In this document: piece by piece, positions 1 to 6,663 of the stretch
Layout of the letters: each line of letters opens with the position of its first letter
Numbering within the stretch: position 1 is the stretch's first letter
Virus record (IMG/VR): IMGVR_UViG_2711768001_000005
From: a virus
Taxonomy: Duplodnaviria > Heunggongvirae > Uroviricota > Caudoviricetes
DNA: 6,663 bases
Strand: one strand, 5' to 3'
The notes under the pieces: model-generated
Database searches by the model: none
Told to the model about the DNA's origin: nothing
Seen by the model: the letters and a program-made list of their open reading frames with translations, nothing else
Program-made: the position numbers and the translations under genes

Positions 1-78
1 CGTCAGCGTCGTCACTCTCGTCTGGGGAATATCTCCCCGGCAGCCTTCAGGGAAAAATATCATCAGATGGCTGCTTAA
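1..78 (+). CDS. IS3-family transposase (OrfB-like), C-terminal fragment, 5' truncated by the window edge
   Basis: Open frame from base 1 to TAA at 76-78; translation RQRRHSRLGNISPAAFREKYHQMAA matches the HSxLGxxSPxxF C-terminal pattern of rve-domain transposases (recalled, not searched). Confidence 0.55.
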   Translation, partial: RQRRHSRLGNISPAAFREKYHQMAA

Positions 79-121
79 AAAAAGAACAAATGGTAGTGTC
101 CGCTATTGCCAGTACACCTCA
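1..121 (+). mobile_element. Right end of an IS3-family insertion sequence (partial; element body lies left of the window)
   Basis: Bases 1-121 are the exact reverse complement of 6543-6663. Frame 1 (1-78) reads RQRRHSRLGNISPAAFREKYHQMAA then a stop, which resembles the C-terminal tail of IS3-family OrfB (rve/DDE) transposases. The repeat ends at 121 in CA, the typical IS3-family terminus. Confidence 0.6.
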
Positions 122-525
122 GGATAGCGGTCATGTGATGCCGGTTTCCCGGTAACTCAGCACCGGTATCTGAGTCAACGTTTTCTCTACTGGGTCATTT
201 CCGATACGCCCTGCCTGCTGACAGGCTTTCATCACATCTGAAAATATAGCACCCTGACTGATACTGTAGTACCTAAGGTTCCAGAAACTGTGATGTATCC
301 GGCACAGAAAAGCCCCTCCGGAGAGGGCTGGAGAGTGGCGCTATGTGCCATTGCATGATGCCGGGTGCCTCCCGGTGAATTCAGTACCAGCACCTGAATC
401 CGCGATTATCCCATATACCTACTCGCTGATTGCCCCTCCGCACAGGGGGATTCACCATGCCAGTTTCTTTTAACAAACTCCCCGCAAAACAGACAACTGT
501 CAACCGTCTGAATTGTGAGACATTT

Positions 526-551
526 AAAAAAAAGGCCCGCAAAAGCGAGCC
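526..551 (-). terminator. Rho-independent terminator immediately downstream of the tRNA cluster
   Basis: Minus-strand RNA GGCUCGC-UUUU-GCGGGCC (7-bp stem with one G-U pair, plus-strand 534-551) followed by an 8-U tract (plus-strand A run 526-533). Confidence 0.5.
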
Positions 552-565
552 AGGGAAAATAAGTG

Positions 566-642
566 TGGCGCGTTGTACTGGATTCGAACCAGTGACCGAT
601 TGCTTAGAAGGCAATTGCTCTGTCCGGCTGAGCTAACAACGC
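566..642 (-). tRNA. tRNA-Arg (anticodon UCU)
   Basis: Reverse complement folds as a cloverleaf: acceptor GCGTTGT/ACAACGC, D-stem GCTC/GAGC, anticodon stem ATTGC/GCAAT with loop CTTCTAA (anticodon TCT), T-loop TTCGAAT, discriminator G, encoded CCA. Resembles argU/argO-type rare-codon tRNA. Confidence 0.9.
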
Positions 643-655
643 ATGATGCAGATAA

Positions 656-732
656 TGGACCGCCATCGGGGACTTGAACCCCGCGCAGCCAGCTTCGAAG
701 GCTGGCGCTCTTTCCTGATGAGCTAATGGCGG
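656..732 (-). tRNA. tRNA-Arg (anticodon UCG)
   Basis: Reverse complement: acceptor CCGCCAT/ATGGCGG, D-stem GCTC/GAGC, anticodon stem CCAGC/GCTGG with loop CTTCGAA (anticodon TCG), T-stem CGGGG/CCCCG with loop TTCAAGT, encoded CCA. Unusual C1-G72 pair and U discriminator, but the cloverleaf is complete. Confidence 0.8.
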
Positions 733-739
733 TATGTGA

Positions 740-815
740 TGGTGGCCCTTGCTGGATTTGAACCAGCGACCTGGCGATTATGAGTCGCTCGCTCTCACCA
801 CTGAGCTAAAGGGCC
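740..815 (-). tRNA. tRNA-Ile2 (anticodon CAU, lysidine type; tRNA-Met not excluded)
   Basis: Reverse complement GGCCCTTTAGCTCAGTGGTGAGAGCGAGCGACTCATAATCGCCAGGTCGCTGGTTCAAATCCAGCAAGGGCCACCA: loop CTCATAA gives anticodon CAT; closely resembles E. coli ileX/ileY-type tRNA from memory. Confidence 0.88.
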
Positions 816-855
816 GGGAGCCGCATAATAACGACGCGTAATTAATTCTTCAATA

Positions 856-1914
856 TCATCCGTTCTGGCTGACTAAATCCTGTACTTCCCGAACCGTCTG
901 CTCAAAACGTTCAGTCTCCAGCTCAACGCCAATTGCACGACGCCCGAGCGCCAGTGCCGCTTTCACTGTCGAACCCAACCCCATGAAAAAATCTGCAATC
1001 AGGTCACCCGGACGACTGCTAGCGCTGATTATCTGCTGCAGCATTTCTGCCGGTTTTTCGCACGGATGTTTCCCGGGATAGAACTGCACCGGTTTATGCG
1101 TCCACACATCGGTATACGGCACCTGCACCGTCACGCCAAAATACCGCCGCAGATGTTTATATTCACTCAGCAGCTCCGCATACTGCCGGTTCAGTGAGGT
1201 ATACGTATCCACCAGCTGGTGGTGGAGCTTTTCCAGTTCACCACGCCGATGCTTCTCTTCTGCCACCCGGGCAAACAGCGCCTGTAATTTCAGATAATCG
1301 CTTTCATTCGGCAACTGCCACTGACCGGCACTGAACCAGTGCGACACCATGTTTTTCTTTCCTGTGGCATCTGCAATCTGTTTTGCCGTTATCCCCAGGG
1401 CAGCTCGCGCATCACGAAAGTAAGAAATCAGCGGGGCCATCACATGCTGTTTCAGTGCACTGCCCTTCGCCGCATACCCGGCATCTTTCGGACGATACGG
1501 CCCCTGATAATGTTCCGCGAACAGAATGCGCTCTGTGGCGGGGAAATACGCCCGCAGGCTTTCCTTGTTGCATCCGTTCCAGCGTCCGGACGGCTTCGCC
1601 CAGATAATATGGTTCAGCACACTGAAGCGTTCACGCATCATGATTTCGATATCAGATGCCAGGCGATGACCACAGAACAGGTAAAGACTTCCGGCAGGTT
1701 TCAGCACCCGCCAGAACTGCGCCAGACACTGGTCCAGCCACTTCAGGTAATCATCGTCGCCCTTCCACTGGTTATCCCAGCCCTCAGGCTTCACTTTAAA
1801 GTACGGCGGGTCCGTGACTATCAGGTCAACAGAATTTTCGGGTAACGACCGGATAAATTCCAGGCAGTCGGCGTTGATTAACTCACAACTGGATATTTTT
1901 ACAGTATTAAGCAT
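856..1914 (-). CDS. DNA methyltransferase, beta-class (N6-adenine or N4-cytosine), phage orphan MTase
   Basis: 352-aa ORF; N-terminal motif IV IVTDPPYF (DPPY) and C-terminal motif I DFFMGLGST (FxGxGS), the IV-to-I order typical of beta-class amino-MTases. No restriction endonuclease partner is present in the window. Confidence 0.9.
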   Translation of the reverse strand: MLNTVKISSCELINADCLEFIRSLPENSVDLIVTDPPYFKVKPEGWDNQWKGDDDYLKWLDQCLAQFWRVLKPAGSLYLFCGHRLASDIEIMMRERFSVLNHIIWAKPSGRWNGCNKESLRAYFPATERILFAEHYQGPYRPKDAGYAAKGSALKQHVMAPLISYFRDARAALGITAKQIADATGKKNMVSHWFSAGQWQLPNESDYLKLQALFARVAEEKHRRGELEKLHHQLVDTYTSLNRQYAELLSEYKHLRRYFGVTVQVPYTDVWTHKPVQFYPGKHPCEKPAEMLQQIISASSRPGDLIADFFMGLGSTVKAALALGRRAIGVELETERFEQTVREVQDLVSQNG

Positions 1915-2050: not shown

Positions 2051-2078
2051 AAATAAAAAAGCCTTCACTGCGGAAGGC
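2051..2078 (-). terminator. Intrinsic terminator overlapping the stop codon of the 65-aa ORF, upstream of the methyltransferase
   Basis: Minus-strand RNA GCCUUC-CGCAGU-GAAGGC (plus 2061-2078) followed by UUUUUU (plus A run 2055-2060). Confidence 0.45.
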
Positions 2079-2262
2079 GTCTGTAACAACCGAACTGATA
2101 GTCTGCCAGACCCGCCATAACCAGCTGGGTCAGTATTAACTGGCAGCGTTCGCGTGAAAGGTAAGTATTCTGCGCTATCTCCCCGACTGTCGCCGGTTCG
2201 GTAACGCTTAATTCATTAAACACCACTCTGGCGGTTTCTGTCATATCCTGCTGTTTTAGCAT
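2065..2262 (-). CDS. Small putative helix-turn-helix DNA-binding protein (65 aa)
   Basis: ATG at 2262 preceded by AAGGA about 7 nt upstream; the segment TVGEIAQNTYLSRERCQLILTQL has a helix-turn-helix-like pattern. Lies between tR' and the MTase in the late transcript. Confidence 0.55.
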   Translation of the reverse strand: MLKQQDMTETARVVFNELSVTEPATVGEIAQNTYLSRERCQLILTQLVMAGLADYQFGCYRRLPQ

Positions 2263-2380: not shown

Positions 2381-2406
2381 ATAAAAAACCCGCTCGGCGG
2401 CGGGTT
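2381..2406 (-). terminator. tR'-like terminator ending the short pR' leader transcript
   Basis: Minus-strand RNA AACCCGC-CGCCGA-GCGGGUU (plus 2387-2406) followed by UUUUAU; lies about 40-60 nt downstream of the predicted pR' start. Confidence 0.55.
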
Positions 2407-2439: not shown

Positions 2440-2481
2440 CCATCGTTATAACGAATTTACCACAGATTCCGGAAAAATCAA
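2440..2481 (-). promoter_or_regulatory. Late promoter pR' with the Q-utilisation/pause region
   Basis: Minus-strand TTGATT (-35, plus 2476-2481), 16-nt spacer, TGgTAAATT extended -10 (plus 2454-2461), then CGTTATAACGATGGG. This matches my recollection of lambda pR' (GGGTAAATT-6 nt-AACGATGGG), and it sits directly after the Q stop. Confidence 0.6.
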
Positions 2482-5338: not shown

Positions 5339-5689
5339 NNNNNNNNNNNNNNNNNNNNNNNNNNNNNNNNNNNNNNNNNNNNNNNNNNNNNNNNNNNNNN
5401 NNNNNNNNNNNNNNNNNNNNNNNNNNNNNNNNNNNNNNNNNNNNNNNNNNNNNNNNNNNNNNNNNNNNNNNNNNNNNNNNNNNNNNNNNNNNNNNNNNNN
5501 NNNNNNNNNNNNNNNNNNNNNNNNNNNNNNNNNNNNNNNNNNNNNNNNNNNNNNNNNNNNNNNNNNNNNNNNNNNNNNNNNNNNNNNNNNNNNNNNNNNN
5601 NNNNNNNNNNNNNNNNNNNNNNNNNNNNNNNNNNNNNNNNNNNNNNNNNNNNNNNNNNNNNNNNNNNNNNNNNNNNNNNTGAGACAGAT
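5339..5689. other. Assembly gap (351 N)
   Basis: Uninterrupted run of n; the true length and content are unknown. Confidence 0.97.
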
Positions 5690-6542: not shown

Positions 6543-6663
6543 TGAGGTGTACTGGCAATAGCGGACACTACCATTTGTTCTTTTTTTAAGCAGCCATCTG
6601 ATGATATTTTTCCCTGAAGGCTGCCGGGGAGATATTCCCCAGACGAGAGTGACGACGCTGACG
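6543..6663 (-). mobile_element. Right end of a second, inverted copy of the same IS3-family element (body lies right of the window)
   Basis: Exact reverse complement of 1-121; the match stops at 6543 (6542 is A where C would be required). Confidence 0.6.
6586..6663 (-). CDS. IS3-family transposase C-terminal fragment (inverted copy)
   Basis: Reverse complement of 1-78; same translation RQRRHSRLGNISPAAFREKYHQMAA. Confidence 0.55.
   Translation of the reverse strand, partial: RQRRHSRLGNISPAAFREKYHQMAA

Follow-up and report, generated by a model that had tools for sequence, protein, structure and literature searches.

Does a phage late region laid out like that of a Shiga toxin (Stx) phage, ending on an insertion sequence (IS) and devoid of stx, record the loss of a toxin? 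The initial annotation of our window (the whole stretch of 6,663 nucleotides) had described Q, pR', three tRNA genes, a terminator and an IS end, in that order, and had left two alternatives: an stx-negative relative of the Stx phages, or a prophage whose cargo and lysis region was removed or displaced by an IS rearrangement at position 121. We found each of these features where it had been placed (Table 1), pR' being plausible only. The first alternative holds and the second fails at 121: the stx-like Q-tRNA layout without stx is here how a widespread lineage of stx-negative prophages normally looks, with a clean IS600 insertion added to it. We regard it as highly probable that the window covers the late-regulatory segment of a defective lambdoid prophage without stx, of the kind resident in Shigella sonnei, that small RNA (sRNA) units fill its toxin slot and that the IS600 is a clean insertion. 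An architecture of this kind which lacks stx and lies beside an IS end is no sign that a toxin was lost, and this correction bears on any search for "lost" or "hidden" Stx phages among draft contigs of Shigella or E. coli.

The late regulatory block

The Q protein is annotated as "antitermination protein" in two relatives (L001 and L002). The hexamers of the putative pR' match the consensus at 8 of 12 positions only and fall below the threshold of the promoter scan; hence, we consider this promoter a plausible candidate and nothing more. The methyltransferase is found as an identical protein in many closed chromosomes. The first tRNA, with anticodon CAT, is called Met by ARAGORN, while its homologue is tRNA-Ile, ileZ, in RefSeq and in phage records. 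The terminator which closes the tRNA cluster, and which had been recognised from the start, is a hairpin followed by T8 with a folding energy of -13.8 kcal/mol (z -4.84; 0 of 200 shuffled sequences equally stable). It is the final stretch common to Stx2 phages ahead of the variable slot.

Table 1. Position of the features of the window (strand relative to the sequence as presented)
Feature	Position	Strand	Evidence
IS600 right (orfB-proximal) end	1..121	+	orfB stop 76-78; terminal inverted repeat ends at 121
Unit 2, diverged STnc100-like sRNA gene, split from its own terminator by IS600	122..251	-	homology
Unit 2 helices: H3; H4; 3' arm of the outer helix	176..154; 152..141; 140..133	-	
Unit 2 body start (AUGUGAUG...)	about 237	-	predicted; body ends at 122, at IS600
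Unit 2 extended -10, TGCTATATT	251..243	-	by inspection, predicted
Unit 1, complete STnc100-family sRNA gene	300..489	-	Rfam RF02076
Unit 1 intrinsic terminator	329..307	-	terminator-like site
Unit 1 -35-like hexamer, TTGACA	503..498	-	by inspection, predicted
Intrinsic terminator 3' of the tRNA cluster, hairpin and T8	551..526	-	terminator scan
tRNA-Arg (TCT), argO homologue	566..642	-	ARAGORN; Rfam tRNA, 70.1 bits; argO in Stx2a_1447
tRNA-Arg (TCG), argN homologue	656..732	-	ARAGORN; Rfam tRNA
tRNA, CAT anticodon, tRNA-Ile (ileZ) in relatives	740..815	-	ARAGORN; Rfam tRNA
DNA methyltransferase (N6/N4 type), 352 aa	856..1914	-	Pfam PF01555, E 7.9e-42
tR'-like terminator	2406..2381	-	terminator-like site in scan; putative
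Putative late promoter pR', TTGATT-16-TAAATT	2481..2454	-	by inspection; putative
Late antiterminator Q, 273 aa	2487..3308	-	Pfam PF03589 Antiterm, E 1.6e-53
Second copy of the same IS600 end, inverted relative to 1-121	6543..6663	+	121-nt perfect inverted repeat

No stx and no protein gene beside the tRNAs

In the window, stxA and stxB do not stand directly 3' of the ileZ-argN-argO tRNAs. When positions 1-900 were compared with Stx2A and Stx2B by tblastn, a check against stx which the initial annotation had proposed, no stx remnant appeared: the best match had E 1.1 and overlapped a tRNA, in keeping with the earlier impression that no stxA-like coding sequence is present. The same search covering the uninterrupted spacer of S. 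sonnei 53G as well as window 1-900 gave best E values of 1.1-1.8, and no RIP or SLT_beta Pfam domain was found in the local ORFs.

It had also been claimed that positions 122-525 hold no convincing ORF. We found no protein gene there either: the ORFs of at least 40 aa touching 122-636 have no Pfam match, all start with GTG or TTG and all overlap RNA genes. The word "non-coding" is thus right for protein and wrong otherwise, because STnc100-family sRNAs are encoded in this stretch. These structured sRNA genes had been overlooked, as had the inverted IS600 end at 6543-6663. A RefSeq pseudogene on the opposite strand ("hypothetical protein, incomplete") is antisense to the sRNA gene which we call unit 1, and we regard it as spurious.

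The toxin slot in related prophages

Of 5426 complete E. coli genomes, 311 contain window 121-900 as one unbroken stretch of 96-98.5% identity, and in O121 and UTI89 this sequence runs on into the genes for esterase, holin, lysozyme, Rz and terminase; none of the 5426 covers window 1-900 contiguously. The initial annotation had itself stated that the same sequence following the Q-tRNA block in intact phages would mean that no loss had occurred. This is what we found in the 311 genomes, and it counts against the proposed loss event. The other alternative, an stx-negative relative, is supported: stx-free phages which were isolated, or whose complete genomes were sequenced, have this layout too (phi296 and PhiR5_2), and the search described above brought up no remnant of stx.

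In relatives with an uninterrupted site, three units lie between argO and the esterase gene, scoring 123.6-137, 30 and 161 bits respectively against STnc100. In phage Stx2a_1447, where the order is tRNAs, stx2AB, STnc100 (75 nt after stx2B) and esterase, homology to the window stops at position 525. The homology breakpoints place a 1.3-kb stx2AB cassette and a 472-bp module of two units in the same slot, and in phage phi296 this slot is almost empty (39 bp). The order known from Stx phages (Q, pR'/tR', tRNAs, STnc100/EcOnc27, nanS-p-like esterase, lysis cassette) is found here too, the esterase and holin being seen only in the closed relatives, past the IS.

We propose that a variable moron slot lies 3' of Q, pR'/tR', the methylase and ileZ-argN-argO, and that it holds stx2AB in Stx2 phages and, in the present lineage, two tandem STnc100-family units, a complete unit 1 and a diverged unit 2. 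Beyond them come a third, conserved STnc100 gene and then the nanS-p-like esterase and holin genes. The region 3' of pR' is a known moron site carrying sRNAs (PMC4104026). More tentatively, it may be that the moron slot is a cassette site between the argO terminator and the conserved STnc100, with toxin genes and extra STnc100-family units as alternative cargo, and that unit 2 is an sRNA which has so far escaped cataloguing, is conserved in structure and possesses an extended -10 promoter and a terminator of its own; we would not give this reading even chances.

A simple insertion of IS600 at position 121

Over its full 121 bp, window 1-121 matches at 100% the orfB-proximal end of IS600 copies on Shigella and E. 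coli plasmids (annotated "IS600 ORF2"), and its translation ends in AAFREKYHQMAA followed by the stop codon. Hence the IS stops exactly at 121, where an IS terminus had already been suspected. The window corresponds to positions 5308-11914 of a closed relative, L005, at 99.96% identity, both IS junctions included, and L005 has at this site a full 1263-bp copy of IS600 with orfA and orfB. An exact search for the junction of IS and prophage in a collection of species-representative genomes gave 0 matches. We infer the sequence lying beyond the IS in the source strain from closed genomes which carry the identical methylase and are 99.96% identical to the window.

The filled site in L005 reads ...GCTATCC, then IS600, then TCCTTCCAGG, and the empty site in S. 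sonnei 53G reads ...GCTATCCTTCCAGG. TCC is therefore present on both sides of the IS in L005 and the site is uninterrupted in 53G, as expected for a simple insertion; the duplication comes from closed relatives which share 99.96% identity with the window, the latter containing no more than 121 bp of the IS. In seven other closed chromosomes IS600 occupies the site and the esterase and holin genes follow directly beyond it. On the far side of the IS, a stretch of 3013 bp runs colinear with the O121 prophage at 99.2%. A comparison of the junction with intact relatives, one of the checks which had been suggested, shows a simple insertion with a 3-bp TCC duplication and no loss at 121. IS600 would thus have inserted once and cleanly between the body of unit 2 and the terminator of unit 2, probably with nothing deleted at 121 and no toxin gene lost there. 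The insertion would split unit 2 and separate the tRNA/sRNA block from the remainder of the late operon by 1.26 kb.

One can still imagine that an Stx prophage lost stxAB, and perhaps its lysis genes, by an IS600-mediated deletion at 121, positions 122-525 being a leftover spacer. The upstream layout is that of an Stx phage, with a tRNA block 93% identical to that of Stx2a_1447, there are IS600 copies without target duplications elsewhere in the prophage, and the stx locus of S. dysenteriae 1 is flanked by IS600. Against these points stand the perfect 3-bp duplication, the empty site in 53G, the esterase and holin beyond the IS, the same 780 bp unbroken in 311 E. coli genomes whose late regions are complete, the absence of Stx-like sequence in the stretches searched and the two sRNA units, which account for nearly all of 122-525. 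We find this history very improbable, and the comparison of the empty site with the filled one refutes stx loss at the 121 junction itself.

The window lies between two IS600 copies in inverted orientation, and it probably represents a short-read contig ending in the repeat. Exactly 121 bp of the same repeat at both ends is what breaks at overlaps of k-mer length would typically leave, so that the junction might be suspected of being an assembly artefact, the end of a chimeric contig. This suspicion deserves hardly any credence: seven closed chromosomes show exactly this junction, complete with the full IS600 and the duplication.

The second IS600 end and the lysis genes

The second IS600 copy lies at 4166-5428 in L005 and has no matching target duplication. 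Two IS600-associated breaks are seen in the prophage, one about 3-3.4 kb downstream, outside the window, the other at window 6543, and neither has a target duplication. The idea of a loss by IS rearrangement, unsupported at 121, survives in another respect: the prophage is lysis-defective through IS600-associated breaks elsewhere. Endolysin, spanin and structural genes would have been lost at these other copies.

Could the Q-tRNA-sRNA block have been moved as a unit, by a composite transposon consisting of the two inverted copies and the 6.4 kb which they enclose? The perfect 121-bp inverted IS600 ends on both sides of the window would fit, but 53G, whose chromosomal context is the same, has the right-hand IS600 and lacks the left-hand one, the right-hand copy has no duplication, and the DNA outside both copies still belongs to the same prophage. 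Copies moving together within a single duplication around the unit were not found: 53G has one copy only, and of the two copies just the left one is flanked by a duplication, which is its own. A composite transposon is thus exceedingly unlikely. From the state of 53G, we concluded that the left copy is a later single insertion with its own duplication.

Two STnc100-like units in the slot

Unit 1 matches RF02076 along the whole model (positions 1-206 of 206) with 123.6 bits, the gathering threshold being 47, and E 1.3e-27. Its 5' end is predicted to be G460, by homology to PasD, for which the 5' end is given in Table S6 of PMC8550237. Aligned with the other copies and with PasD1 and PasD2, it follows the consensus fold, with compensatory GC-to-AU changes in its helices. 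Both the conserved helices and the 3' terminator of STnc100 are present, the terminator being weakened in S. sonnei by a 1-nt deletion (-10.2 vs -17.3 kcal/mol in E. coli). The fold of the single sequence is not more stable than that of shuffled ones (z -0.61). Since this measure is uninformative here, we assessed unit 1 by family and covariation evidence.

The truncated copy of unit 2 in the window gave no Rfam match at E up to 5. Its uninterrupted homologue in one relative (L009, 11654-11827) scores 30.1 bits against STnc100 (E 1.7e-4), below the gathering threshold of 47, and the homologues in two others (L016 and L017) score 30.0 bits. All five STnc100 helices are kept in unit 2: 98.3% of the cells are paired, 7 pairs are changed on both sides, none of 500 shuffles did as well and slid controls reached 37-54%, an agreement which is inflated by the fact that the structure used was derived from the same four-sequence alignment. 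The minimum free energy fold of unit 2 on its own has the same architecture (z -2.63). Its -10 element and its terminator are conserved between two sequence types 9% apart, the terminator carrying an indel and a compensating change between them. Among 5426 complete E. coli genomes, 673 have unit 2, without annotation, and phage PhiR5_2 likewise has it unannotated. Most of the closed chromosomes examined, though not that of the S. sonnei strain 53G, have IS600 between unit 2 and its terminator; the predicted promoter of unit 2 would consequently now read antisense into the IS600 transposase gene.

Expression and possible role of the units

Each unit appears to have its own promoter-like hexamers and intrinsic terminator. 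These hexamers were found by inspection and are weak or ambiguous matches to the consensus, the promoter scan having given none for pR', unit 1 or unit 2. The units may be made in the lysogen, without Q, as regulatory RNAs of the Hfq type, while in lytic growth polymerase modified by Q would transcribe across them on its way to the lysis genes.

STnc100 is located 75 nt 3' of stx2 (PMC12370729), overlaps the Hfq-bound sRNA EcOnc27/sRNA103 (PMC12711010), and is transcribed and Northern-verified in EDL933 (PMC5331693). The related PasD1 and PasD2 depend on Hfq for their stability and have many RIL-seq partners (PMC8550237). Other sRNAs (the convergent anti-sRNAs AgvB and AsxR, and any Rfam family) were sought with permissive thresholds in 100-570, in the spacer of 53G and 3' of stx2B, where only STnc100 and chance-level matches came out.

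It might be objected that the units are decaying, non-functional duplicates, or cis-acting terminator or spacer elements of the late operon, and not trans-acting sRNA genes. STnc100 itself has no established function (PMC9029176), the terminator of unit 1 is weakened in S. sonnei, and unit 2 scores below threshold and its splitting by IS600 is tolerated in most closed chromosomes examined. However, compensatory substitutions preserve the helices between units which are only about 70% identical, the -10 element and terminator of unit 2 have been conserved across the divergent sequence types, and members of the family are transcribed, Hfq-associated and Northern-verified in EHEC and EPEC (PMC5331693, PMC8550237, PMC12711010). 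We consider decay or a cis-acting role unlikely, if clearly less so than a loss of stx at 121.

If the units are sRNA genes, as we prefer to think, the seemingly "empty" DNA between the tRNAs and the esterase gene would hold up to three tandem STnc100-family genes, whose relatives are Hfq-binding RNAs with reported links to the expression of virulence genes in EHEC and EPEC. The tandem array, with its uncatalogued middle unit, is only a mildly new point. As S. sonnei strains differ in the intactness of one unit, they offer a natural comparison for the function of these sRNAs.

Comparison with known systems

The IS600 at 121 is an ordinary member of the IS3 family, with a 100% identical end, termini of the TG...CA type and a 3-bp target duplication; one copy here measures 1263 bp instead of 1264.

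PasD1 and PasD2 of EPEC E2348/69 (homologues of EcOnc13), reported to be related to STnc100 (bioRxiv 10.64898/2026.05.13.724894), lie between Q and an esterase or holin gene, as the units of the window do, and resemble them in the 5' helix and in the GCAUGGUGAAUCC start. We rejected membership of the window units in PasD: the alignment is similar in the 5' helices only, and the half carrying the UGUGAG seed, whose complement is the CUCACA target motif (PMC8550237 supplement), is absent. The 3' half of PasD (seed and terminator) being unrelated, the window units are of the STnc100 type.

Unit 1 resembles STnc100 (RF02076; also EcOnc27 or sRNA103) over its full length, in all helices and in the terminator, but its variable internal region differs from that of the copy next to stx2, so that its targets may differ. 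The STnc100 of Stx2 phages and that of the window lineage have the same position relative to the esterase gene (PMC12370729). More generally, Stx2a_1447 (AP012536; 933W/Sp5 type) and this prophage lineage share methylase, ileZ-argN-argO, terminator, STnc100, nanS-p-like esterase, holin and endolysin in the same order, with 93% identity in the tRNA block and 87% in the conserved STnc100. Unlike Stx2 phages, the present prophage has no stxAB, 472 bp with two STnc100-like units replacing the 1.3-kb cassette; its Q is of a different type (273 aa, PF03589), and its early and late genes are truncated by IS600.

The stx-negative E. coli prophages (UTI89, S88, IHE3034, 042, O121 201805972) and phages phi296 and PhiR5_2 are 96-98.5% identical to window 121-900. 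These prophages have an identical Q-RusA-DUF968 module and the same array of three sRNA units 5' of the esterase gene; the triple array is also present in PhiR5_2, while phi296 has a single, chimeric STnc100 copy. In contrast with the prophage studied here, they have no IS600 at the site and have kept endolysin, Rz and terminase.

Contents of the stx slot

All the elements listed by the initial annotation are present, namely Q, the tRNAs, the terminator that follows them and the IS terminus, which lies exactly at window position 121 (see the table). At its two ends (1-121 and 6543-6663) the 6663-bp window has a perfect 121-nt inverted repeat, which matches the orfB-proximal end of IS600 at 100%, and the minus strand carries all the genes in between; this gene order and the terminators were observed directly. 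The pR' promoter proposed earlier falls below the scan threshold but is plausible together with its tR'-like terminator. The 65-aa ORF has only weak winged-helix matches (TrmB, E 0.0026, below the cut-off). In line with the initial annotation, which recognised no stxA-like coding sequence, window 1-900 contains no stx-like sequence: the best tblastn match of Stx2A/B has an E value of 1.1 and lies over a tRNA.

Features located in the window (minus strand, -)
Feature	Position	Strand	Remarks
Three small ORFs	between the repeats	-	
DUF968 protein	between the repeats	-	
RusA	between the repeats	-	
Q antiterminator, 273 aa	2487-3308	-	PF03589, E 1.6e-53
Proposed pR', TTGATT-16-TAAATT	2481..2454	-	below scan threshold
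tR'-like terminator	2406..2381	-	
65-aa ORF, conserved	2065-2262	-	between tR'-like terminator and methylase
Terminator-like site	2078..2061		after the 65-aa ORF
N6/N4 DNA methylase	between the repeats	-	PF01555
tRNA, CAT anticodon	740-815	-	annotated ileZ/tRNA-Ile in relatives
tRNA Arg-TCG	656-732	-	
tRNA Arg-TCT	566-642	-	
Strong intrinsic terminator	551..526	-	follows the tRNAs
TTGACA hexamer	503..498	-	upstream of unit 1
Unit 1 terminator	329..307	-	

The 400 bp beyond the tRNA terminator had been described as non-coding. This holds insofar as 122-525 contains no credible protein ORF, but the stretch carries a first STnc100 unit (unit 1) and the promoter and body of a second, related one (unit 2, window 122-251). 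Unit 1 is a member of the STnc100 family: Rfam finds a full-length STnc100 sRNA (RF02076, gathering score 47 bits) at 489..300 (-), with 123.6 bits and E 1.3e-27. Every helix is kept relative to the other copies, with one compensatory GC-to-AU and one GC-to-GU change. PasD2 has an RNA-seq-mapped 5' end (PMC8550237 Table S6), and aligning unit 1 with it predicts G460 as the start of the unit 1 RNA. Both the window and S. sonnei 53G show a 1-nt deletion in the 5' arm of the unit 1 terminator, and an outer-helix pair has changed from G-C to G-U; the terminator hairpin is weakened in S. sonnei (-10.2 kcal/mol, against -17.3 in E. coli O121). Antisense to this unit, RefSeq has a pseudogene in E. 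coli relatives, named "incomplete hypothetical protein" (8226-8351 of the relative L001, by homology window 346-471 (+)); the sRNA gene beneath it is unannotated, and the protein call is probably spurious.

The stretch of about 175 bp that comes next in uninterrupted relatives gives a second STnc100 match below the family threshold (30.1 bits, E 1.7e-4, at 11654-11827 of the relative L009), found also in the array loci L016 (E. coli CREC-629) and L017 (phage PhiR5_2). The architecture of unit 2 is nonetheless STnc100-like: the 8-bp outer helix (AUGUGAUG/CAUCACAU) is still there, as are three internal hairpins and a strong terminator. Units 1-3 share a conserved structure. On a four-unit alignment 98.3% of cells are paired and in 7 pairs both partners have changed; none of 500 shuffles gets that far, and slid controls give 37-54% paired. 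This agreement is inflated by the structure being derived from that alignment. The MFE fold of unit 2's own sequence has the same architecture (z -2.63), an extended -10 element, TGCTATATT (window 251..243), is invariant, and two sequence types that differ by 9% both keep the terminator, with an indel and a compensating change between them. Taken together, these features suggest that unit 2 is genuine. Conserved and unannotated, it occurs in 673 of the 5426 complete E. coli genomes. Identity with PasD was rejected by alignment for both units.

We compared the slot flanked by the argO terminator on one side and the conserved STnc100 (unit 3) on the other, in late-transcription direction. In phage Stx2a_1447 it holds the stx2AB cassette (about 1.33 kb); STnc100 begins 75 nt after stx2B, in agreement with PMC12370729, and the esterase follows. 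In S. sonnei 53G, E. coli O121 and UTI89 it holds units 1 and 2 (472 bp), then come unit 3 (STnc100, 161 bits) and the esterase. In the stx-free phage phi296 it is reduced to about 39 bp before a single STnc100. The window's homology to Stx2 phages ends at 525, the last base of the terminator T-run, and restarts at unit 3. Hence, we concluded that the two-unit module sits in the same slot as the toxin cassette. In phi296 and other single-copy phages the unit is chimeric, suggesting that units have recombined with each other. The same three-unit array (STnc100, sub-threshold unit, STnc100) also stands in a different moron context, at L016 1263-1920, where tRNA-Ile and a DUF3927 gene precede it and iraM follows, and at L017 2263-2941, in a complete phage.

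The IS600 junction and the damage to the prophage

The initial annotation had offered two readings, an stx-negative relative or an IS-mediated loss of cargo and lysis genes. The first is borne out: of 5426 complete E. coli genomes, 311 carry window 121-900 without a break at 96-98.5% identity, and there it runs on into esterase, holin, lysozyme, Rz and terminase. This is the very result named beforehand as refuting a loss event. Window 1-900 is contiguous in none of these 5426 genomes; the insertion at 121 was seen only in seven closed chromosomes among the genomes examined. Seven of the eight closed chromosomes shown read ...GCTATCC, then a 1263-bp IS600, then TCC-TTCCAGGCCC..., while 53G reads ...GCTATCCTTCCAGGCCC... 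without the IS. With TCC on both sides of filled sites and an empty site in 53G, this is a simple insertion that duplicated 3 bp; it separates the unit 2 body from the terminator hairpin of that unit. Past the IS come 3013 bp that match the O121 prophage colinearly at 99.2%, with the unit 2 terminator, unit 3, a 617-aa esterase, the holin and DUF1327. Loss at 121 is thus contradicted by the duplication, the empty site and the genes beyond.

IS600-associated rearrangement did cripple this prophage, but at other sites. In L005, a closed-chromosome locus matching the window at 99.96% (5308-11914, both IS junctions included), colinearity with intact prophages stops about 3 kb past the IS, after the DUF1327/YdfR gene. 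There (16069-17785) endolysin, Rz and structural genes are lost; a 56-aa endolysin-like N-terminus precedes repeats and a third IS600 without matching flanks (AAC against ATT). The repeats are odd, of about 20 bp (GATCG...TTTGGCAT). The IS600 at window 6543-6663 (L005 4166-5428) has no 3-bp target duplication (TTT against TCC), and the DUF977 gene on its far side has an inverted orientation with respect to Q; this end marks a real IS-associated rearrangement, present also in 53G.

The symmetric 121-bp repeat ends, with the many 2-10 kb contigs carrying the methylase protein, suggest that the window is a short-read contig broken at IS600. The identical protein is found on many closed chromosomes (about 4.8-5.0 Mb), HE616528.1 of 53G among them. 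The window has 341 N at 5339-5679, against only 285 bp in its closest relatives (L005 6292-6576), a 56-bp difference; the relatives' counterpart overlaps a hok toxin gene and an Rfam sok antitoxin RNA (L009 6018-6193).

Proposed working and comparison with known systems

From the families involved, each unit may be transcribed on its own, in lysogens, as a regulatory RNA of the Hfq type. In EDL933, transcription of STnc100 copies has been verified by Northern blot (PMC5331693). The copy after stx2B overlaps EcOnc27/sRNA103, an Hfq-bound RNA; fimZ and espA transcripts rose when EcOnc27/sRNA103 was overexpressed (PMC12711010). PasD1 and PasD2, proposed STnc100 relatives (bioRxiv 10.64898/2026.05.13.724894), have Hfq-dependent stability and many RIL-seq partners (PMC8550237). 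Q-modified RNA polymerase from pR' would read through the unit terminators, so that esterase and lysis genes could be expressed. Since the IS600 insertion takes away the unit 2 terminator, any transcript from the unit 2 promoter would run antisense into orfB.

Prophage, IS and sRNA family were each known before, and the stretch that follows pR' has been described as a moron site with sRNAs (PMC4104026). Our reading confirms the initial observation and supports its interpretation in part. What is modestly new is that extra STnc100-family units fill the stx slot in this lineage, that the middle one is conserved, widespread and unannotated, and that closed chromosomes differ in its intactness, 53G having it intact and seven others interrupted. 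The IS600 at 121 is an ordinary element. The locus lacks the defining stx feature, yet it works as the late-regulatory region does in Stx phages.
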